Shown here: one piece after another, positions 4,915 through 23,793 of the stretch | Layout: every line of letters begins with the position of its first letter | Numbering within the stretch: position 1 is the stretch's first letter | IMG/VR virus record: IMGVR_UViG_3300043960_000006 | Span: 1-36,325 of that record | Strand: one strand, 5' to 3' | DNA: 36,325 nt | From: a virus | Program-made: the position numbers and the translations under genes | The notes under the pieces: generated by a model | What the model was told of the DNA's origin: nothing | The model's database searches: none | Seen by the model: only the letters and a program-made list of their open reading frames with translations

Positions 4915-5223
4915 ATGAAATTTGATTATCGTGAAGTTCTTCCGGATGAGTATTTCGAGTGCACAGTAAAGGTTAGCGGCGCGCCTGTTACGCTTCACCT
5001 GACTCCGCCTACCGTACTTGCCACCGACCGGCTTCTTAGCCTCGATAGCGCGGAAAACAAAACGCGTGCCATGCGAGAGATCGCGGCGGAACTGATTGGA
5101 TCGAACGAGGAAGAGAAAGATGTAGGAGAGAAGGCGGTTAACGCCATGACCACGAAACAGCTTCATACCTTTATCTATGCTTATACCGGATGGCTCGGGA
5201 GCACGAAGAAGGAAAAAAACTGA
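4915..5223 (+). CDS. Tail assembly chaperone (gpG-like, unshifted product)
   Basis: 102-aa ORF between the major tail and tape measure genes. Ends ...KKEKN* right after an A AAA AAC slippery heptamer. Confidence 0.8.
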   Translation: MKFDYREVLPDEYFECTVKVSGAPVTLHLTPPTVLATDRLLSLDSAENKTRAMREIAAELIGSNEEEKDVGEKAVNAMTTKQLHTFIYAYTGWLGSTKKEKN

Positions 5224-5507
5224 CCGTGCCGTCCTGCTCGTTCGACCTGGACGATGAGGACGGCATACCCTATACAATCACTACGATCACGATGAAAATT
5301 GTCCATGACTATACGGGGATCGACTTCCGGTCCCTTTATAGCATGGACATTTTCACATACTGGCAATATCTACGCGATGCATCGATCTACCTGTACAACC
5401 GCACGGAATCCGGGCGAGATTACCTGCGCAAGTGCTGGGCATCGGAGCAGACAGAGCCAGACCGAAAAACCTTGAGAAAACTCTTCGGAGGCGGCATGAA
5501 TGGCTAA
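4915..5507 (+). CDS. Tail assembly chaperone, frameshifted fusion product (gpGT-like)
   Basis: Frame 1 (4915) joins frame 3 (5190..5507) by a -1 shift at 5214-5220. The G/GT arrangement upstream of the tape measure is conserved in long-tailed phages. Confidence 0.7.
5214..5220 (+). promoter_or_regulatory. -1 programmed ribosomal frameshift site, A_AAA_AAC
   Basis: Zero-frame codons are gaa aaa aac tga (5212-5223). A -1 slip on A AAA AAC enters the frame of ORF 5190..5507 (...KKLTVPSCSFDLDD...), which is open to 5507. Confidence 0.75.
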
Positions 5508-16287: not shown

Positions 16288-16497
16288 ATGAAAAACGTAT
16301 TTACAAAACAGTGGTGGAGCGCGGCGGCAATCCGTGCGATCAAAACGGTAGCGCAGACAGCAGTAGCAACGATCGGTACAACCGCAGTGATCGAGGGCGT
16401 GGACTGGCGCGTATGCATCTCCGCGTCGATCCTTGCCGGCGTGGTATCTCTGCTCACCTCGATCGCGGGCCTTCCGGAAGTAGGTGATGCGGAGTGA
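16288..16497 (+). CDS. Holin
   Basis: 69 aa, AAGGAGG RBS, two hydrophobic segments (AIKTVAQTAVATIGTTAV and ISASILAGVVSLLTSIAGL). Stop overlaps the endolysin start (GTGA). Confidence 0.75.
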   Translation: MKNVFTKQWWSAAAIRAIKTVAQTAVATIGTTAVIEGVDWRVCISASILAGVVSLLTSIAGLPEVGDAE

Positions 16498-17465
16498 ATA
16501 TCATCCAGAAGCACACGCTTGTAAATTTCAGCCGGGGTAATGCCGGCAGGAAATACATCGTGATCCACTACACCGGCAACCGCACCGACACGGCGGCGGG
16601 CAACGCTAATTATTTTTACTCCACGAAGCGCGGGGCGTCGGCGCACTATTTCGTAGACGAAAAAGAAATCTATGAGGTTGTGGACCCGGCTAACTCCGCG
16701 TGGGCAGTCGGGAAGAACTACGGAAGAAACAATCTTTTCGGGAAGTGCAAAAACACCAACTCAATCAGCATCGAGATGTGCTCCGCCGGCGGCAAGATCG
16801 CGGACGCGACGATCGCGCAGACGGTTGAACTGACGAAGTATCTCATGCAGAAATACGGTATTGCCGCCGATCATGTCGTGCGGCATTATGATGTGTGCTC
16901 GAAGCAGTGTCCGGGGTGGGCCGGGTGGCTGCCTCCGAATGAAACGCTCTGGAATAACTTTAAGGCGCGGCTGACCGGATCCGCGCAGACGGTGACGATC
17001 GAGCCGAAGCAGGCTCCCGCATCGCAGCCGGTGCAGACTGCTGCGAAGCCTTCCGGATCTCAGCTTGTGAGGGACGCGCAGGGCTTTATCCATAATTTCG
17101 TCGATGGAGACGTGAAGGTGGACGGGATCCGTGGCGCGCAGACCAACAAGGGAGTGATCAAGGTGCTGCAGAGATGCATTGATCTCGATTATGGTACGCA
17201 TCTTGCCTACGATGGTATCGCCGGCGCAAAGACGCTTGTGGCACTTGGAAAGCATTACGTGAAGCGCGGTGAGAAGCAGTACCTTGTATCTTTCGTCGAG
17301 GTGGCGCTGTCGGCGCTGAATTATGATCCGACGGGAATTGAGAATCCTGGCATTTTCGGATCCGGACTTGAAAACGCGGTGAAGGTATTTCAGCGCGACG
17401 CGGGCCTGACGGCTGACGGCGTAGCGGGATATCGCACGCTCCGGGCGCTGATAGCCAAGTTTTAG
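16494..17465 (+). CDS. Endolysin: N-acetylmuramoyl-L-alanine amidase (Amidase_2/PGRP-like) with C-terminal peptidoglycan-binding repeats
   Basis: N-terminal YIVIHYTGN...ASAHYFVD...SISIEMC...VVRHYDV...KQCPG pattern of the amidase_2 fold. C-terminal DGIRGAQT, DGIAGAKTLVAL and VFQRDAGLTADGVAGYRTLRAL resemble PG_binding_1 repeats. Confidence 0.85.
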   Translation: MNIIQKHTLVNFSRGNAGRKYIVIHYTGNRTDTAAGNANYFYSTKRGASAHYFVDEKEIYEVVDPANSAWAVGKNYGRNNLFGKCKNTNSISIEMCSAGGKIADATIAQTVELTKYLMQKYGIAADHVVRHYDVCSKQCPGWAGWLPPNETLWNNFKARLTGSAQTVTIEPKQAPASQPVQTAAKPSGSQLVRDAQGFIHNFVDGDVKVDGIRGAQTNKGVIKVLQRCIDLDYGTHLAYDGIAGAKTLVALGKHYVKRGEKQYLVSFVEVALSALNYDPTGIENPGIFGSGLENAVKVFQRDAGLTADGVAGYRTLRALIAKF

Positions 17466-17568: not shown

Positions 17569-18375
17569 ATGAAGGGCGAAACTTACAAAGAATTTGTTGA
17601 AAAATTCAAGCCAAAGAAAACGACCGATGATTGTTACACGCCAGACTACATATATGAGATTGTTGTTGGATGGTGCGTGAGTGAATACGGGGTTGATCGT
17701 AAAAAAATCATAAGGCCGTTCTGGCCGGGCGTTGATTACCAAAAACAGAATTATGAAGGGCGAGTTGTGGTTGACAACCCGCCCTTTTCAATTCTCTCAA
17801 AAATCATAAAATTTTATGAAGAGCGCAACATTAAATATTTTCTTTTTTGCAATGCCATGACAAGCTTTTCCATTAAATCAGGCTGCCACATTGTAATAGA
17901 TACTCCAATTGTATATGAAAACGGCGCAAAAGTCTCAACTGGGTTTATCACGAATCTTGATGATATGGAAGCACGAACCGCGCCTGATCTTGATGCCGCG
18001 ATTAGAAACGAGGCTAAAAAGCACAAACAGACAAAAACACTTCCGAAATATGTATATCCCGATTGCGTTCTTACGGTGGCTGAACTTCGTCTCCTCAGTA
18101 AGTACGGGATTAATTTCTGTGTAAACAAATCGGAAAGTGTTCCAGTTCGTGTACTTGACTCACAGCGCATGATCAAAAAAACCATATTCGGAAGCGGGCG
18201 TTTTATATCTGAGAAGGCCGCCGCTGAGAAGGCCGCCGCTGAGAAGGCCGCCGCTGAGAAGGCCGCCGCTGAGAAGGCCGCCGCTGAGAAGGCCGCCGCT
18301 GAGAAGGCCGCCGCTCATGTGTTGGAACTTTCTGAGCGTGAAAAAGAAATAATAAAAAAATTAGGCGGGGCTTAA
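17569..18375 (+). CDS. Orphan N6-adenine DNA methyltransferase, EcoRI-methylase-like, with C-terminal (EKAAA)7 repeat
   Basis: TTDDCYTPDYIYE plus VVVDNPPFSILSKIIKFYEERNIKYFLFCN resemble M.EcoRI (SDEFYTQ... and VVTNPPFSLFREYLDQLIKYDKKFLIIAN) as I recall it. No adjacent restriction enzyme gene. Confidence 0.65.
   Translation: MKGETYKEFVEKFKPKKTTDDCYTPDYIYEIVVGWCVSEYGVDRKKIIRPFWPGVDYQKQNYEGRVVVDNPPFSILSKIIKFYEERNIKYFLFCNAMTSFSIKSGCHIVIDTPIVYENGAKVSTGFITNLDDMEARTAPDLDAAIRNEAKKHKQTKTLPKYVYPDCVLTVAELRLLSKYGINFCVNKSESVPVRVLDSQRMIKKTIFGSGRFISEKAAAEKAAAEKAAAEKAAAEKAAAEKAAAEKAAAHVLELSEREKEIIKKLGGA
18211..18315 (+). repeat. Perfect tandem repeat, 7 x 15 bp (gagaaggccgccgct), in frame, encoding (EKAAA)7
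   Basis: Counted directly: seven identical units at 18211, 18226, ... 18301. GC-rich repeat inside an otherwise AT-rich gene. Confidence 0.97.
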
Positions 18376-18833
18376 TGCTCCGCCTTCTTCCTTTCTTCGT
18401 ATGCGTCGTTGATCAGGTCAGCGACGATCTGCGACCGGCTCAGACCCGAAGAGCGCGACATATCTGCGAGCTTCTCGATCACACTCTTCGTGAGCGAGAA
18501 GCTGCACAGCTTCCGCCCTATAGGTTTTGTATCATCCTGAACGGTGAATATTTTTTTACAATCTTCATCGCTCAGATGTTTCTCAGCCCACTTGCGGGCC
18601 TCTCCATATGTCAGCGGCGTGATTGCCTCGCCGCCGCTCCAAGAGTTGATCTCCACCTCCTCGGCGTAGGGTGAAGCCGGTCCGCCGACGCCGTGGATGA
18701 AATATTCCCCGGTAGATTTCCGATAAAGCACTTCCGAGTAATGCTCGGAAGTGCCTTTTTCACCATATTCATATTCGCCGTACTGCACCGCCGTGTCGGT
18801 GCAATAGCGGCGACCATTGATTATTTTTTTCAT
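18372..18833 (-). CDS. Protein with C-terminal ribbon-helix-helix-like DNA-binding domain (last gene of the minus-strand accessory operon)
   Basis: ATG at 18833 (MKKIINGRRYCTD...) follows AAAGGAGGAGG. The longer ORF-track start has no RBS. The C-terminus LCSFSLTKSVIEKLADMSRSSGLSRSQIVADLINDAY looks like a CopG/RHH fold. Confidence 0.6.
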   Translation of the reverse strand: MKKIINGRRYCTDTAVQYGEYEYGEKGTSEHYSEVLYRKSTGEYFIHGVGGPASPYAEEVEINSWSGGEAITPLTYGEARKWAEKHLSDEDCKKIFTVQDDTKPIGRKLCSFSLTKSVIEKLADMSRSSGLSRSQIVADLINDAYEERKKAEH

Positions 18834-18849
18834 GCGTGTCCTCCTCCTT

Positions 18850-19071
18850 TTACTTGTATCTTTTGATTTCGTTTCCATCAAGATGGTCTGCGGCATCCTC
18901 ATCAGGATTGTCTGACTCAAGCACATAGAATGCAACTGTATGTCTTTTTTCTTCATTTGTGGTGTATCTTTCCCACTGTGCATCAGCTTCCCGAATCGCT
19001 TCTTCCTTGCTATCATATTCTTCTGTAAAAAATCTCCCGGGGCCTCTGTCATCTACAATGATATATTTCAT
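18850..19071 (-). CDS. Small acidic protein, unknown function
   Basis: 73 aa, about 20 Asp/Glu against 11 Lys/Arg by my count. Tightly packed in the operon. Confidence 0.55.
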   Translation of the reverse strand: MKYIIVDDRGPGRFFTEEYDSKEEAIREADAQWERYTTNEEKRHTVAFYVLESDNPDEDAADHLDGNEIKRYK

Positions 19072-19074
19072 AAT

Positions 19075-19596
19075 TTATACCTCTTTCCATGCAAGGCTTC
19101 CTGTCTTCTCCGCATATCCACTCTGAAGATCTTCATATGTCCTGATCGCGTCCTCATTGCGCTCAGCCCCCAGCACCTTGCACGCAGCGTCCCACTGACT
19201 GGTCGGAATCTGATAGAACTCATCGCAACCATTCATACTCAGGTAATGGGCGGCATTAAGGAAGCGGAAGACATCATCTATCGTGTTAATGTTCATTGCC
19301 CGAATAGCATCGAGATATGTCTCCGCATACCACCCGCCATACTCTTCAGCCATTCTTGCAAGTGCATTGACGATCCACACGGTATCACCGCCGTTGCGTA
19401 TATCGTCGTAACTTACGCCCTGCTGATCGCAGTCATCTTTGATGTCATCTCTGATGTCGTCATAAGCACCGATCTCGGTCGCTGCAAAACGCCATGCAGC
19501 CTTCCGCTCTTCCTCTTCAATTTCTTCTCCTTTGTATGCCTTGCGAACAAAATCCGCAAAGTCAATGTCGTCCATGATCCGGTTTTCTTCCTTCAT
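19075..19596 (-). CDS. Acidic protein, unknown function
   Basis: ATG at 19596 (MKEENRIMDD...) follows GGGGAGAAAGAG. The ORF-track TTG start at 19644 is less likely. Asp/Glu-rich N-terminal half (DDIRDDIKDDCDQQGVSYDDIRNGGD). Confidence 0.55.
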   Translation of the reverse strand: MKEENRIMDDIDFADFVRKAYKGEEIEEEERKAAWRFAATEIGAYDDIRDDIKDDCDQQGVSYDDIRNGGDTVWIVNALARMAEEYGGWYAETYLDAIRAMNINTIDDVFRFLNAAHYLSMNGCDEFYQIPTSQWDAACKVLGAERNEDAIRTYEDLQSGYAEKTGSLAWKEV

Positions 19597-19640
19597 TGCT
19601 TTCTCTTTCTCCCCGTCTTGCCGGTAGGTCAGCAGGTAAA

Positions 19641-19832
19641 TCAATGCGGGCGATTATCCTCCTTAACCCACAGCCACCCGGCGTGGGTGTTGCTGCCATC
19701 GTATATCTCTTCATAAAGCGAATACGTGGCTCCGTCCCCGTGATCTGGGGCCTTGAGGTATACACCTGAAAAACCAGAATCAACGCTTTCACCAGATTTC
19801 ACACCGGTATAAATCGGTTTTGAAAGTTTCAT
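19641..19832 (-). CDS. Small protein, unknown function
   Basis: 63-aa ORF in the operon with an upstream AGGAG-type sequence (revcomp of ctccttct at about 19840). Confidence 0.45.
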   Translation of the reverse strand: MKLSKPIYTGVKSGESVDSGFSGVYLKAPDHGDGATYSLYEEIYDGSNTHAGWLWVKEDNRPH

Positions 19833-19877
19833 AATTTATCTCCTTCTGCCCTCGTAACCTCCGGGGCGGGTCTGCGT

Positions 19878-20138
19878 TTATACCTCTTCTTCGACTTCCT
19901 CGACCTTGATCTCGAGAGTCACAAGCTCTTCGCCAAGGTCTTCGCCCTTGTAAATGTAATATTCAAATGTCGTTGCGTCGACGCGCTTAGCGTCGAACGT
20001 TCTGAGGTCCGGCTCTTCGGTTTCAATAGCGATCCGAAGAGCTTCCTCTTCACTTTCAGCCTCGATGGGCTCTACTGCCGTCCACTCGGCTTCTTCCCAA
20101 TCTCCTCCATTAGCTCTCGTGAACTCTGTGTATTTCAT
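19878..20138 (-). CDS. Very acidic small protein, unknown function (first gene of the accessory operon)
   Basis: ATG at 20138 follows ACAGGAGGG. 86 aa with 28 Asp/Glu against 8 Lys/Arg by my count, ending EEVEEEV. Confidence 0.6.
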   Translation of the reverse strand: MKYTEFTRANGGDWEEAEWTAVEPIEAESEEEALRIAIETEEPDLRTFDAKRVDATTFEYYIYKGEDLGEELVTLEIKVEEVEEEV

Positions 20139-20183
20139 TGTAAACCCTCCTGTTGTGATTTTCTTTTCCCTCTTGCTGATTAT

Positions 20184-20212
20184 ATAGTAGCACAGAGTTA
20201 TATAATTGTCAA
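20184..20212 (-). promoter_or_regulatory. Sigma-70/SigA-type promoter for the accessory operon
   Basis: Minus strand reads TTGACA (20212-20207), 17 nt, TGc-TACTAT (extended -10, 20189-20184). Octamer ATTATATA/TATATAAT occurs three times (20179-86, 20199-206, 20215-222), bracketing the -35 and overlapping the -10. Confidence 0.6.
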
Positions 20213-20229
20213 GCATTATATATAAATAA

Positions 20230-20264
20230 TTAAAAAAATTACCGGCCCCATCTATCAGGGCCGG
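20230..20264 (-). terminator. Rho-independent terminator, minus strand
   Basis: Stem ccggccc/gggccgg (20242-48 / 20258-64) with a 9-nt loop. On the minus strand it is followed by TAATTTTTTTAA. Confidence 0.6.
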
Positions 20265-20459
20265 CATCTAGCAGATATCTAGCACGCATATGCGCTCGTG
20301 TGCGCTTCTACGCATGGTAAAATGTAGAGTTTGCGCGGGTTTGCGCATATACGCACGATGTGAAAATGGACAAGGCGGCCATACAAAATCTCATGACGAT
20401 TCCTTTGCTTGTGCGGTTTTCTGGCGCTTTTATGCCACTCATCTAGCAAATATCTAGCA
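20265..20459. other. Candidate attP region
   Basis: Non-coding stretch just 3' of int. 20-bp direct repeat catctagca(g/a)atatctagca at 20265-84 and 20440-59. 10-bp palindrome cgcatatgcg at 20285-94, related gcgcatatacgc around 20343-54, and a TTTGCGC doublet. Confidence 0.4.
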
Positions 20460-21552
20460 TTTTTACGCTCTTTATTTCTTCCCGGTCCCGCTCCCTCATC
20501 TGATCGGTAACGTGCATATAAACTTCCTTTGTGATTCTGCTGTTCGAGTGCCCGACTCTTCGTGTGATCGCTTCGAGAGATACGCCAGATCCCGCCAATG
20601 TCGCGACGTGCGTATGCCGCAAGGCGTGCGGTGTAAGCGGCCGTCCTGCGGCCTTCTCGCAGTTCTCACGAAGATATTTTCTATATGCTTCGTAGTGGAT
20701 ATATCCGCCGTCGCAGTTTGGAATAAAGAGCCGTGACCGGTACGCAAAGCGCATCTGCTCCGCCGCTATAAAAGCCTTGATCCTTCGGCAGCAGATCAGA
20801 AGCTCGTCCTGCATATACACGGATCGCTCAGAGGTTTCGGTTTTTGTCGTCGAGATTTTCCGTATTATGAGGCTGTAAGTTTTGCTCACACTGATCTCGC
20901 GCGCCTGAATATCAACATCGTTATCTTTTAGCGCGATTGCCTCGCCGATCCTCAGGCCCGATAGGATTAAAAACTCCGTAAGCAGCTTCCACTTTTCGAC
21001 TTTCATTTCCGATAGAAGCGCGGCGATCTCATCACGCTCCAGATACTTTTCGGAATCCTTCACCCTTGCGGACGGCTCTTTCATCCTTTGGAGTTTATCA
21101 ACGTAGCTGATATTTTTGACATAATCCGCCTGATACGCCCAACGGATTAGAGACTTGAACGCTTTCAGCCTCCCGTTGTAGGTGCTCGGAGTGTCGGACC
21201 ACAGCTTTTCTGATGCAATCGGAGCAGTGAGCCGCGACACGATCGCGTCGGCTCCGATCAGGCGCGCCACAACACTGAGGTGCTGCTTATCACTCAGCGC
21301 GGTTTGCTCTTTTACGCTCTTGAGTTGGTGCTCATAGTATCGCTCGATCAGATCTCCGAGCGTGATTTCTTCCGATTTCGGCGCGGATGCCTTTTGAATC
21401 TTCTCCCGCAGGATCTCACGTGCGGCACGCTCGTCGGCCTTCTTCCGCGTCGGCTTGATCGTTACCGTAGCTGTCTTGGTTTTGCCGGTCAGCGGATCCT
21501 TATAGCGCTCATAGTAGCATACGTTTCCACTTTTCAGCTTCTGACTCCACAT
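20443..21552 (-). CDS. int: Tyrosine recombinase / phage integrase
   Basis: ATG at 21552 (MWSQKLKSG...) follows AAGGGAGGA. C-terminal ALRHTHVATLAGSGVSLEAITRRVGHSNSRITKEVYMHV fits the HxxR...Y catalytic signature. LRIGEAIAL fits the first Arg box. Confidence 0.9.
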   Translation of the reverse strand: MWSQKLKSGNVCYYERYKDPLTGKTKTATVTIKPTRKKADERAAREILREKIQKASAPKSEEITLGDLIERYYEHQLKSVKEQTALSDKQHLSVVARLIGADAIVSRLTAPIASEKLWSDTPSTYNGRLKAFKSLIRWAYQADYVKNISYVDKLQRMKEPSARVKDSEKYLERDEIAALLSEMKVEKWKLLTEFLILSGLRIGEAIALKDNDVDIQAREISVSKTYSLIIRKISTTKTETSERSVYMQDELLICCRRIKAFIAAEQMRFAYRSRLFIPNCDGGYIHYEAYRKYLRENCEKAAGRPLTPHALRHTHVATLAGSGVSLEAITRRVGHSNSRITKEVYMHVTDQMRERDREEIKSVKMLDIC

Positions 21553-21575
21553 AAAAAATCCTCCCTTGTGAAAAC

Positions 21576-21627
21576 GCCCACGGGAGGATATAATCAAGTG
21601 TGTGTCAAGGTGTGTCCTCTCGTGGGC
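21576..21627 (-). promoter_or_regulatory. Leader hairpin upstream of int, with an arm complementary to the int Shine-Dalgarno
   Basis: 13-nt arms gcccacgggagga / tcctctcgtgggc pair at 12 of 13 positions around a 26-nt loop. The minus-strand transcript continues GUUUUCAC, then the RBS GGGAGGA. The proximal arm contains UCCUCCC, an exact complement of that RBS. Confidence 0.45.
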
Positions 21628-21672
21628 ATTGCCGCCGCCCTCGGTCGCTCGGGGGCGGTTTTTATATGTTAT

Positions 21673-21729
21673 AAAGTTATCAAAGTTAATAAAAGTCAAT
21701 GCAAAGTTATAAAAGTTAGTCTAAAGTTA
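21673..21729. repeat. Six phased copies of AAAGTTA (one AAAGTCA)
   Basis: Copies start at 21673, 21682, 21692, 21703, 21712 and 21723, giving spacings of 9, 10, 11, 9 and 11 bp. The array lies between the ltp stop and the int start. Confidence 0.9.
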
Positions 21730-21769: not shown

Positions 21770-22810
21770 TTATAATCCTAGCTGATCGGCGGCATAAGTC
21801 GCTTGCTCCTTTGTGAATTTGCTTCCGCTATTCGAAGATAACTGCTCGATCAGTCTGCTTCTGGAAAACCCTCCCAATTCAAGATAACTCTGACCGGCTT
21901 CTACGGCTTCCTGATTCCAGTCCGCTCCACAATTGTCCGCGGCATAAGTGGCCTGCTCTACGGTGAATTTATCCCCAGCGTTGGAAGAGAGCTGATCGAT
22001 AATTCCCTGATAAGAGAAACCGCTCATGCTAAGATATGACTTTGCTTTTTCAAGCGCCTCAGCATTCCAGTCAGCTTCGCAGTGATCTGCCGCAAAGGTC
22101 GCATCATCTACGGAAAATCCCTCCCCATACTGCGAAGAGAGCTGATCAATCAACCCCTGATACGAAAATCCGCTCAAATTGAGATAGCTTTTCGCTTTTG
22201 AAAGCGCCTGCCGCTGTGAAGTAGTCGCTCCTGCAAGCGGATCCGGTGTTGGTGTCGCGGTCGGCGTCGGTGTTTCTGTAGGTGTTGGCGTGGCGGTTGG
22301 CGTAGGCGTTTCAGCAGGCGCGCTTGTTATCGCTGTGCTTTTACCATTGATGCATTCGGCCATACCATTTATCATGCTCATTGTTTCTTCGGAATCAGAC
22401 GTTTTATAGGCTGCTTCAAAATAGTATGTGTCATTGTGAACAATAATATGAGCGATAATATTATTTTGGCAAGTGTATGTTCCGTCTTCGTTCTCTTCTT
22501 CGAATTTTCCGTAAAGATCTTCCGGATAATGATCTTTTAATGCATTACTTACTTCGTATACCCGAGCATCATAATCTTCAGCACAGTTTTCTTTCGTACC
22601 ATAAAATACAGAATTAAAGGTTGTGGAATCTTTTTTTGCCTCAAACCCTTCAAAATTTGATTTTTTTATTTGAACAACATTAAATCCGTTCGATTTTAAA
22701 AAATCCCATTGTTTGTCAAGTATGCCGTGCTGATCTTCCGTCAAGATACTACTGTTTGAGCATCCGGCTAACATAAGAGTAGCCAGCAGTAAACAAAATA
22801 CCTTCTTCAT
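21770..22810 (-). CDS. ltp: Ltp-type surface lipoprotein (superinfection exclusion) with three Ltp repeats and an extra N-terminal domain
   Basis: ATG at 22810 follows GAGGGGGTGG. Signal peptide with LAGC lipobox. PT-rich linker (ETPTPTATPTPTETPTPTATPTPDP). Three repeats of about 50 aa (A/G)KSYL..(S/G)GFS...(L/I)I(D/E)QLSS....(F)(S/T)...AT(F/Y)AAD, as in phage TP-J34 Ltp. Located between int and the repressor, as in TP-J34. Confidence 0.8.
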   Translation of the reverse strand: MKKVFCLLLATLMLAGCSNSSILTEDQHGILDKQWDFLKSNGFNVVQIKKSNFEGFEAKKDSTTFNSVFYGTKENCAEDYDARVYEVSNALKDHYPEDLYGKFEEENEDGTYTCQNNIIAHIIVHNDTYYFEAAYKTSDSEETMSMINGMAECINGKSTAITSAPAETPTPTATPTPTETPTPTATPTPDPLAGATTSQRQALSKAKSYLNLSGFSYQGLIDQLSSQYGEGFSVDDATFAADHCEADWNAEALEKAKSYLSMSGFSYQGIIDQLSSNAGDKFTVEQATYAADNCGADWNQEAVEAGQSYLELGGFSRSRLIEQLSSNSGSKFTKEQATYAADQLGL

Positions 22811-22833
22811 ATTTTCCACCCCCTCAACTTTTT

Positions 22834-23043
22834 CTACACTCGCATCTTGCTTTCGATCAAATCGGCAGAGTCTTCGCGATCGTGATCGCCTCGCCGGATG
22901 TGTTCCAGCTCGTGCTTGTATGCCGCGACCTGTGTTTCACGGTTCATCCTGGCATTAAGTATGATCGTAAAGCTCCCGTCCGGATTCTCCCGCGTCAATC
23001 CTCGGATCGACGTAGGAATATCCCTGTAAATTACATCAACCAT
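22834..23043 (-). CDS. Mini ImmA/IrrE-like metallopeptidase-motif protein
   Basis: 69 aa containing HELEHI (HEXXH). Overlaps the 3' end of the XRE repressor gene by 8 nt. GGAGGCG RBS. Confidence 0.55.
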   Translation of the reverse strand: MVDVIYRDIPTSIRGLTRENPDGSFTIILNARMNRETQVAAYKHELEHIRRGDHDREDSADLIESKMRV

Positions 23044-23425
23044 CCGTATCGCCTCCAGTCATTCTATCTATCATCTCTTTTACAAATTCGATGTCTTCCG
23101 GTTTTACTTTGCGAGAAGCATCAAAGAGTACCTTGTAATCTGGATTCTTGTGCAAAAAATCGGCAAGTTCACGTGTTTCTTCATCTATGTAATATGTTTC
23201 GCTATCGTCCTTTTCTTCTAGCAGATCTGATTTTTCAATGCCGAAATAATCAGCGAGCATTTGAATTTTTCCCATACGCGGGAGCTTTTTCCCGTTGCAC
23301 CAACTAGAAACCGTTGCAGAACTTAATCCAAGATCTCGCATCAAGTCCATCTGGTTTTTCCCGTTTTTCTCCATATAATACCGTAACTTTTTAACAAACA
23401 CTCTTCTATAATCATCATCCGACAT
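23036..23425 (-). CDS. CI-like lysogeny repressor, XRE-family HTH
   Basis: ATG at 23425 (MSDDDYRRVF...) follows AGGAGG. HTH segment NQMDLMRDLGLSSATVSSWCNGKKLP. Divergent from the cro-like gene. Confidence 0.8.
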   Translation of the reverse strand: MSDDDYRRVFVKKLRYYMEKNGKNQMDLMRDLGLSSATVSSWCNGKKLPRMGKIQMLADYFGIEKSDLLEEKDDSETYYIDEETRELADFLHKNPDYKVLFDASRKVKPEDIEFVKEMIDRMTGGDTDG

Positions 23426-23453
23426 GGTTAGATCCTCCTGTTGAATTGCTTCA

Positions 23454-23482
23454 ATAATAATACTTTTAGAAAGACTTAGCAA
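23454..23482 (-). promoter_or_regulatory. Repressor-side promoter (PRM-like)
   Basis: Minus strand: TTGCTA (23482-23477), 17 nt, TATTAT (23459-23454). Confidence 0.5.
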
Positions 23483-23499
23483 GAAAAATTTTTAAAAAA

Positions 23500-23535
23500 T
23501 CTTACTTTACGCTTGACATCTTCCTTAAAGTAAGA
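23500..23535. promoter_or_regulatory. Operator-like inverted repeat tcttacttta ... taaagtaaga bracketing the -35 of the lytic promoter
   Basis: Perfect 10-bp arms at 23500-09 and 23526-35, with a 16-bp spacer containing TTGACA. Confidence 0.6.
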
Positions 23536-23541
23536 TATGAT
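23513..23541 (+). promoter_or_regulatory. Early lytic promoter (PR-like)
   Basis: TTGACA (23513-18), 17 nt, TATGAT (23536-41), 36 nt upstream of the cro-like GTG. Confidence 0.65.
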
Positions 23542-23577
23542 GAGATCATCAAATAGGCGCGAAAGAGAGGTGATACA

Positions 23578-23793
23578 GTGAACGTGCTAATCGAGATTCC
23601 AAACAGTTTAAAAATCAGTTTGGCGGCTGCTCGCGTGAACGCCGGATATACGCAAGAAGAAGCCGCAAAGCTCATCGGCGTATCGAAATTTTCAATAAAT
23701 GCGTGGGAGCATGGAAAGTCATCGCCTAGCGTATATCAGGCAAATAGAATTTATGAGGTATACAATAGGCCGAAAGATTCCATTATTTTTTGA
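23578..23793 (+). CDS. Cro-like XRE-family HTH regulator
   Basis: GTG start after AAGAGAGG. 71 aa. HTH segment YTQEEAAKLIGVSKFSINAWEHGKSSP. Divergent from the repressor. Confidence 0.75.
   Translation: MNVLIEIPNSLKISLAAARVNAGYTQEEAAKLIGVSKFSINAWEHGKSSPSVYQANRIYEVYNRPKDSIIF

Follow-up and report, generated by a model that had tools for sequence, protein, structure and literature searches.

A portable, apparently self-repressed cargo operon in a temperate phage and the widespread two-domain protein family of its candidate regulator

Regulators of the anti-CRISPR-associated (Aca) type are the main handle for finding anti-defence genes, and nearly all of those known are helix-turn-helix (HTH) proteins from Proteobacteria and a few Firmicutes. 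Classical morons, as defined by Hendrix and co-workers, carry their own promoter and terminator and lie inserted between conserved modules. Here we analyse a five-gene operon (g1 to g5) in IMG/VR virus record IMGVR_UViG_3300043960_000006, a stretch of 36,325 nt (hereafter the window) that represents a temperate phage genome and looks complete. The best-supported account of this locus is that of a portable, self-repressed cargo operon whose regulator, g5, belongs to a new and widespread two-domain family and is Aca-like in its working.

Among the closest described systems, Aca14 is an Aca protein of the ribbon-helix-helix (RHH) type; it represses the operon that encodes it, its binding site being an AT-rich inverted repeat that covers the -10 element (bioRxiv 10.64898/2026.07.27.740549). 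For the bifunctional RHH–anti-CRISPR (Acr) protein AcrIE10, the target is an inverted repeat across the -35 and -10 elements, to which it binds as a dimer of dimers (PMC13530269), and in homologues of AcrIF25 the RHH domain is exchanged for an HTH domain (PMC13530269; bioRxiv 10.64898/2026.07.27.740549). On the side of the cargo, AcrIB2 of the Clostridioides difficile phage phiCD38-2 is an acidic, helical protein whose gene directly follows the lysis genes and is expressed in lysogens; an AcrIC5 homologue was the starting point of its discovery, and its locus has either an AP2-domain protein as regulator or none (bioRxiv 10.1101/2023.05.22.541795). AcrIC5, in turn, is highly acidic and is predicted to occlude the site at which Cas8c binds the protospacer adjacent motif (PAM) (bioRxiv 10.1101/2025.06.06.658234). 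Like Aca14, which was found by guilt by association, g5 stands as a putative RHH-type protein at the aca position of a small-gene operon, and, like the AcrIB2 locus, which lies beside the lysogenic-conversion region of a temperate Clostridia phage, the window operon places small acidic proteins after the lysis genes. No likeness in sequence was detected: tblastn searches with g3 and g4 found no GenBank phage, and those with g5 found six records, none of them from a Clostridioides phage.

The operon lies on the minus strand between the lysis genes, which end at 17465, and the integrase gene, which begins at 20443, with a putative attP next to a break in homology at ~20371. Its genes encode proteins of 86 (g1, 19878-20138), 63 (g2, 19641-19832), 173 (g3, 19075-19596), 73 (g4, 18850-19071) and 153 amino acids (g5, 18372-18833, the last gene), separated by gaps of 3-45 nt and provided with AGGAG-type ribosome-binding sites. 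Position, protein sizes and tight packing all agree with an earlier note on this DNA, made from the sequence alone. The near-consensus promoter proposed there was borne out as well. A promoter scan and a heptamer count define a promoter-operator region at 20179-20225 (minus strand) that is conserved, and nearly invariant, in six relatives. It comprises a -35 element TTGACA (20212-20207), a 17-nt spacer and a -10 element TACTAT (20189-20184) with a TG extension (TGcTACTAT), matches the consensus at 10 of 12 positions and is the best site within 17.3-20.6 kb in a sigma-70-type scan. Three minus-strand TATATAA heptamers start at 20222, 20204 and 20186, with a period of exactly 18 bp: the first box precedes the -35 element, the second adjoins it on the downstream side and the third covers the -10 element. 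The 36-kb window has six TATATAA copies in all, and five of them fall within 20180-20225. The description of this pattern as three octamers, TATATAAT and ATTATATA bracketing the -35 element and TATATAAT again over the -10 element, is literally correct, but the repeats are better read as TATATAA heptamers.

Upstream of the promoter, the terminator scan detected an intrinsic terminator (20240-20266, minus strand) with an 11-bp stem followed by ATTTTTTTAA; it is kept in the relatives and would shield the operon from read-through out of the integrase gene or host DNA. At the far end, a terminator hairpin (18354-18385, minus strand; hairpin proper 18385-18363, then AATTTTTTTATT) spans the g5 stop codon, and homology with the relatives ends at 18363. 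The hairpin also serves the convergent gene that follows, its plus-strand version being found in the same scan. The operon thus has its own promoter and terminator, a site between conserved modules and contents that differ among relatives, which supports the view that it is an autonomous phage moron at the lysis–attP junction.

Relatives of g5 make up 189 homologous protein clusters. At least 329 IMG/VR stretches encode one, and they occur in 144 GTDB species genomes, mostly of Lachnospiraceae, Oscillospiraceae and Peptoniphilaceae (Clostridia), with further members in Coriobacteriia, Lactobacillaceae, Bifidobacterium and one metagenome-assembled genome (MAG) of Methanomethylophilaceae. Operons of very different content in this family have a promoter consensus in common, TTTTATATAAAT ... 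TA TTGAC(A/T) TTATATAAACTCTATG.TA.AAT; the window contains it just once, in the promoter described above. The strict motif TTGAC[AT]N1-2TATATA was matched 41 times in 1.59 Mb of family loci, and 37 of these matches, from 36 loci, share the strand of g5 and precede it by 77-1406 nt; in an independent set of GTDB loci, 11 of 13 matches lie upstream of g5. The reciprocal test gave a similar picture. The 19-mer TTGACWTTATATAAACTCT has 35 instances in all of IMG/VR, and 27 of the 31 with at least 1 kb of downstream sequence are followed by a g5-family open reading frame on the same strand. Two or more TATATA boxes were present in 17 of 69 g5-family promoters compared with 4 of 147 control intergenic regions, and several members have perfect 16-18 bp palindromes overlapping the -35 element, such as GACATTTATATAAATGTC. 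Since the g5 homologue is the only DNA-binding protein common to the motif-bearing operons, the simplest reading is that it binds the boxes and represses its own promoter, and we regard autorepression by g5 as a well-founded inference from these sequence patterns.

Some copies of the motif have no g5-family gene downstream or are the second copy in their locus (L189, position 2789; L203; L213; L038, 3063-3432). By analogy with what is reported for Aca14, such extra copies may mark further operons that are controlled in trans. The sequence of the RHH beta-strand was also compared with the presence of the operator among family members and gave no clear pattern.

The genes linked to g5 were studied in 76 non-redundant loci, with gene calls from a codon-usage scorer that had been checked against supplied gene calls. 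In 54 of the 76, the gene after the g5 homologue is convergent, which makes the homologue terminal. At least one tightly linked, co-directional gene (median 89 amino acids) lies upstream of it in 59 loci, and the remaining 17 have g5 without upstream cargo. Clustering of the 121 upstream proteins gave 92 groups, and 77 of these had a single member. In the Lactobacillus phages LFP01 and JNU_P7 the g5 homologue is again the last gene between endolysin and integrase, and in L012/L013 an operon encoding 61-, 177- and 143-amino-acid proteins lies between the integrase gene (or host DNA) and the lysis genes. Compared with other small proteins of the same loci, cargo proteins are more often acidic (46% versus 35% with an isoelectric point (pI) below 5; p = 0.008) and less often membrane-like. 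Regulator, operator and hypervariable cargo are thus linked across the family, which fits an Aca-like autorepressed cargo operon.

A Pfam scan of 141 cargo proteins detected an AcrIC5 domain in two, both encoded directly upstream of g5 homologues (L039_u1, E = 9.7e-11; L174_u1, E = 1.4e-18), and an ArdC N-terminal (ArdC-N) domain in one, from L092. The gene for L039_u1 sits directly between the family promoter motif and the g5 homologue. The remaining matches were to Phage_Gp111, a GNAT acetyltransferase, an Xre-type HTH protein and several domains of unknown function. In addition, a Tad3-family gene is located two genes upstream of the g5 homologue in Bilifractor porci, and an AcrIC5-family gene 3 kb from a g5 homologue that consists of the N-domain only. 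We conclude that the association of the g5 family with known anti-defence genes is real but thin.

The largest recurrent cargo family, with 11 of the 121 upstream proteins, had no Pfam match (L017, L031, L033, L054, L064, L065, L082, L089, L090, L096, L097 and several GTDB loci). Its members share the motif GFKRWTKGNYDRLYINA...YYKTGN...ISN.E.RRM..AKTYID, often with an N-terminal AWxxAK helix before it.

The behaviour of the cassette in close relatives was followed in six metagenomic phage or prophage contigs (L001-L006), which carry it beside an endolysin gene of 94-95% identity. Homology extends over 20371-19858 (terminator, promoter and g1), is lost over the g2 slot, where all six have an unrelated gene of 49-64 amino acids instead, returns at 19634-18363 (g3, g4 and g5) and then passes directly to 17469, the end of the endolysin gene. 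The promoter-to-g5 cassette is kept in all six relatives and its flanks differ, consisting of an integrase gene, a host tRNA-Val gene or an HTH gene. Homologues of g2, g3 and g4 (68%, 88% and 92% amino acid identity) were found without g1 or g5 in L099/L100, a different element of ~39% G+C in which further genes are interleaved and in which g3 has 48% G+C. A g3 homologue alone (79% identity) is present in L007, beside a gene for an NAD-dependent ligase. The synonymous divergence (dS) of g3 is 0.21-0.31, compared with 0.6-1.4 for the flanking genes, indicating that g3 was recently exchanged between elements. A tandem duplication of g3 in L007 was considered and rejected, the second gene (182 amino acids) being unrelated.

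Of the cargo proteins, g1 is a very acidic orphan, with 28 Asp/Glu against 8 Lys/Arg residues, a pI of 4.05 and the C-terminus EEVEEEV; g3 (pI 4.26) and g4 (pI 4.55) are also acidic, and our recalculated values agree with the charge counts of the earlier note. The orphan g2, which occupies the variable slot (pI 5.4), and g5 (pI 5.9) are not strongly acidic. Ratios of nonsynonymous to synonymous divergence (dN/dS) against the closest relatives were 0.10 for g1, 0.25 for g3, 0.11 for g4 and 0.12 for g5, within an overall range of 0.10-0.32, and these four genes are under purifying selection. Together with the 68%-identical homologue of g2 elsewhere, these ratios indicate that the genes are real. 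The start of g3 is ambiguous. The ATG at 19596 gives a protein of 173 amino acids, and a TTG at 19644 gives one of 189. With the longer form, the start codon and the g2 stop codon overlap in the sequence TTGA, a hint of translational coupling; relatives of g3 are called at 187 and 182 amino acids, and the extra N-terminal residues are conserved (P0121).

Searches of Pfam, NCBIfam and PADLOC returned no match for g1-g4, and the sole PHROG match was a weak one, of g4 to a family of unknown function, so that the earlier failure to recognise a characterised family is borne out for these four proteins. Sequence and profile searches of the PDB (with g3 and g5, and with family profiles of g1, g4 and g5) gave noise or weak matches to CopG only. 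A match of g3 to PVL-lectin (E = 0.0013) was treated as compositional because the aligned part is Asp-rich, and g1 and g4 were rejected as paralogues (hhalign probability 5.8%). The g1 family has 5 cluster representatives among 1.84 billion proteins and g3 has 2 relatives among 5.8 billion; g3 is absent from GenBank phages, plasmids and GTDB species representatives. Homologues of g4 number 23, and GenBank phages have none. Comparison of AlphaFold models by Foldseek, as proposed in the earlier note, was carried out for g3 and g5. The AlphaFold2 model of g3, built from three sequences, is poor (all-alpha, pLDDT (predicted local distance difference test) 66, with four of five models near 40) and gave no significant match, those to 14-3-3 proteins (root-mean-square deviation ~13 Å) being meaningless. 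The sole property that points to DNA mimicry by the cargo is net charge, strongly negative in g1, g3 and g4, and such mimicry is unproven; Pfam gave no match of the four to Ocr- or ArdA-type families.

What such cargo does can be read in more than one way. With the same regulation, g1-g4 might serve lysogenic conversion or host modulation (competence, stress or the cell surface) or superinfection exclusion, which we consider possible but distinctly less probable than an anti-defence role. The lysis–attP junction is a classical site of morons of that kind, the promoter is of the host type and does not depend on late transcription of the phage, and the window already has an Ltp superinfection-exclusion lipoprotein beside its integrase; most cargo of the family is without annotation, and the GNAT acetyltransferase is one cargo gene. 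The cargo, however, is small, soluble and acidic and has no enzymatic or membrane domain that could be recognised, a PADLOC search yielded no component of a defence system, and the named families that recur in or near the cargo are only AcrIC5 and ArdC-N, plus the Tad3-family gene in one genome.

The product of g5 was modelled with AlphaFold2 from 103 sequences, and the model is confident (pLDDT 88). The N-domain (residues 1-98) is built of eight strands and two helices, and a disordered linker connects it to a pair of C-terminal helices (116-129 and 133-152). The C-domain (residues ~108-150) appears to be RHH-like, on evidence that is weak but consistent. A direct match to Pfam RHH_1 has E = 0.0057 and 17 bits, under the 20.5-bit cut-off; the family profile matches CopG with E = 0.023; several homologues have precomputed PF01402 matches; and the region weakly resembles the antitoxins MazE7 and Rv0298. 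The RHH C-terminus claimed for the last protein by the earlier note is thus consistent with the annotation of the homologues and with the two model helices, although the direct match is weak. Searches of Pfam, NCBIfam and PHROGs found weak generic RHH similarity only and no HTH domain or named regulator, these libraries not amounting to a dedicated test against Aca1-Aca13. By Foldseek the g5 model had no match in the PDB at E <= 0.001; the best, Pur-alpha, was not accepted (E = 0.18; template-modelling (TM) scores 0.25/0.46), and comparison with BFVD returned uncharacterised viral proteins only.

The two domains differ in character. The N-domain is mildly acidic (median pI 5.1) and the C-domain basic (pI 8.1-8.2), and column identity is 0.69 in the N-domain compared with 0.45 in the RHH domain. 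In two family members (P0108 and P0114) an HTH_3 domain takes the place of RHH, and in some the N-domain stands alone (e.g. P0085, 101 amino acids). In three GTDB loci (L125, L175 and L181), a lone N-domain gene lies directly upstream of a gene that encodes an N-domain with a DNA-binding domain. The g5 family is therefore a large, previously uncharacterised one in which a conserved N-domain is combined with a swappable DNA-binding domain, which is RHH, sometimes HTH and sometimes missing. The earlier description of g5 as an Aca-like regulator fits its putative RHH domain, but g5 is not a simple, small Aca, since the best-conserved part of the protein is its 100-residue N-domain.

This architecture raises the possibility that g5 itself is the main effector, its N-domain inhibiting a widely conserved host target under an exchangeable autoregulatory domain, with the upstream genes as passengers. 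The superior conservation of the N-domain, its occurrence alone or fused to HTH_3, the tandem pairs of N-only and N-RHH genes and the 17 loci without upstream cargo would all fit, and a swap of RHH for HTH is on record in AcrIF25 homologues (bioRxiv 10.64898/2026.07.27.740549), AcrIIA1 and AcrIE10 being analogous. We nevertheless think it unlikely. The g5 model has no fold match to any solved anti-defence protein, a range that takes in Clostridia, Lactobacillaceae, Coriobacteriia and an archaeal MAG is unusually broad for an inhibitor of one system, and a role of the N-domain in sensing or oligomerisation accounts for the same data.

Proteins resembling g4 are encoded directly upstream of g5 homologues in L012, L066, L074 and L091 (hhalign probability 94%, E = 8.7e-8), and all 12 matches of the g4-like profile are in the position next to g5. 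This recurrence is what might be expected of a toxin–antitoxin or abortive-infection-like module in which g5 is a HicB-style antitoxin and the upstream gene, for example g4, a toxin; the domain order and the RHH/HTH interchange resemble the HicB and MqsA antitoxins, and the weak likeness of the RHH region to MazE7 and Rv0298 points the same way. Such a module is very unlikely, though, given that Pfam, NCBIfam and PADLOC yielded no match to a toxin or antitoxin family, that what lies upstream is hypervariable, with 92 clusters for 121 proteins, that g4 is acidic, unlike RNA-targeting toxins, and that g4 is present without g5 in L099 and L101.

Taken together, the most likely single reading, which we put forward tentatively, is that the operon is a self-repressed moron whose cargo is anti-defence. 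A host sigma-70-type polymerase would fire the promoter, insulated by the upstream terminator, and the four small, soluble, mostly acidic proteins g1-g4 would be made together with g5. After dimerisation through its C-terminal RHH domain, g5 would bind the TATATAA boxes, which are AT-rich and pseudo-palindromic and lie on both sides of the -35 element and across the -10 element. The promoter would thereby be shut off, in the manner of an Aca protein acting on an anti-CRISPR operon. The most likely role of the cargo proteins would be to inhibit proteins of host immunity, or others that handle DNA, by binding them stoichiometrically. The N-domain of g5 might bridge RHH dimers, sense a signal or be an inhibitor fused to its own regulator. 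DNA binding and repression by g5, like anti-defence activity of the cargo, are inferred here from gene arrangement, promoter architecture and family comparisons.

Several observations weigh against this reading. Similarity of g1-g4 to any known anti-defence protein was found neither in Pfam, PHROGs, NCBIfam and PADLOC nor in the PDB, and only 3 of the 141 scanned cargo proteins match known anti-defence families. The position between lysis genes and attP equally suits lysogenic-conversion or superinfection-exclusion genes, and conservation that is higher in the N-domain than in the RHH domain is unusual for a mere regulator. In the GTDB loci the terminal position of g5 is less dominant, the downstream neighbour being convergent in 31 and co-directional in 42. 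With respect to the operator, the strict motif is present in only 27 of the 76 non-redundant loci and absent from about two thirds, and family members with the TATATA operator differ from one another in the residues of the RHH beta-strand, so that the boxes could instead be a conserved strong promoter or the site of another factor. Generic inverted repeats, moreover, were not enriched in family promoters compared with other intergenic regions.

The site of the operon within the phage genome was examined in relation to integration. The plus strand carries the structural genes and the lysis cassette, among them genes for a baseplate/tail-fibre protein, a 136-amino-acid protein, an r1t-type holin (16288-16497) and an amidase endolysin (16494-17465), with which the lysis cassette ends. 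The lysogeny block on the minus strand comprises a tyrosine integrase (20443-21699), the Ltp lipoprotein, which has three Ltp repeats (21770-22819), and a cI-like HTH gene (23036-23425), and a cro-like HTH gene is divergent from it on the plus strand. The block also encodes a 69-amino-acid protein with an HExxH (HELEH) motif and no Pfam match, possibly an ImmA-like remnant. The order of these genes over 21770-23793 (cro-like, cI-like, 69-amino-acid, Ltp, integrase) is that of Ltp-carrying streptococcal phages.

Homology with the relatives breaks at ~20371, and in L003 a host tRNA-Val gene ends exactly there, which places the putative attP core at 20372-20442, between the break and the integrase stop codon. 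In L002, L004 and L006 the integrase gene runs on past the break, and L001 and L005 have different sequence at this point. Position ~20371 is thus a putative recombination point, and in a lysogen the operon would be the outermost element at attR, with its promoter directed inward. The tRNA in L003 is a tRNA-Val(GAC) (5185-5259), whose 3' end is used for integration, and it lies beside host comEC, SNF-transporter and degV genes; the core sequence of the window is unlike that of L003, pointing to another attB for the window phage. A direct repeat of 20 bp, TGCTAGATAT(T/C)TGCTAGATG on the minus strand, for which the chance expectation is none, is present at 20440-20459, overlapping the integrase stop codon, and 175 bp downstream at 20265-20284, just ahead of the terminator. 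The second copy is kept in the relatives. The two copies lie on either side of the putative attP core and are thus candidates for integrase sites of the arm type.

On its other side the operon converges on a plus-strand gene (17569-18375) for a 268-amino-acid protein that belongs to phrog_21498, of unknown function. The earlier note had called this an orphan methyltransferase and the whole 17.5-20.2 kb stretch a counter-defence island. The convergent gene is there, but no methyltransferase match was found in Pfam or NCBIfam (E up to 0.1) or the PDB (E up to 10). A motif IV-type NPPF (in VVVDNPPFS, conforming to (D/N)PP(Y/F)) and the depositor labels of homologues in Bacteroides, Porphyromonas and Eggerthella phages, which read 'methyltransferase' or 'hypothetical protein', leave the assignment plausible but unverified. 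The segment 17470-18362 with this gene is absent from the six closest relatives, indicating a separate insertion that is not part of a conserved island, and the proposed island does not hold up as a conserved unit. Homologues of the 268-amino-acid protein are encoded at most 3 kb from g5 homologues in two unrelated loci (L046 and L134), and the two gene types seem to favour the same accessory region. Near its C-terminus the protein contains (AAEKA)7, encoded by a perfect 15-nt tandem repeat of 7.1 copies (18209-18315, plus strand), which accounts for spurious matches to histone H1-like proteins, Rpf and others. At the DNA level, a search of GenBank phages found no relative of the locus except for a 53-65 nt patch in this gene.

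The g5 family, which occurs in hundreds of phages and prophages of Clostridia, Lactobacillaceae and Coriobacteriia, is distinctive in its combination of an N-domain with a 19-bp promoter-operator, and it would offer a protein or DNA bait with which to mine the counter-defence or host-takeover genes of gut and rumen phages, a repertoire that is largely unexplored. The window itself offers four orphan candidates, g1-g4, of which g3 is visibly traded between unrelated elements. A bolder proposal, about which we are doubtful, is that the family constitutes an undescribed class of anchor for anti-defence cargo in gut and rumen Firmicutes phages, with the N-domain as an inhibitor, or as a sensor of some conserved component of host immunity, fused interchangeably to autorepressor domains of the RHH or HTH kind, and with operator and regulator as the homology arms of a cargo-swapping hotspot. 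If so, baits made from regulator and operator would uncover many new anti-defence families, g1-g4 included. Should the cargo not be anti-defence, the locus would still be a clean case of phage accessory genes carried in an expression cassette that is portable and self-limiting.

Set against the described systems, g5 differs from Aca14, as far as the two can be compared by description, in its additional, better-conserved and beta-rich N-domain of 100 residues and in boxes that flank the -35 element besides covering the -10. It resembles AcrIE10 and AcrIF25 in joining a putative RHH domain to a domain that does not bind DNA and in a candidate operator that overlaps both the -35 and -10 elements. 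The order of the domains is reversed, RHH standing at the N-terminus in AcrIE10 and at the C-terminus in g5, and Foldseek searches of the PDB with the g5 model detected no similarity to their Acr domains. With HicB-type antitoxins, g5 has in common an N-domain, partner-binding in HicB, that precedes the RHH or HTH domain, as well as autoregulation, which is predicted for g5. It has no HicB or HicA homology, and where HicB has a conserved basic toxin beside it, g5 has acidic, hypervariable neighbours. Finally, the operon resembles classical morons in that its transcription is independent of the late genes and opposite to them and in that its contents vary between close relatives, but it differs from them in that a dedicated, family-specific regulator and its operator travel along with the cargo.

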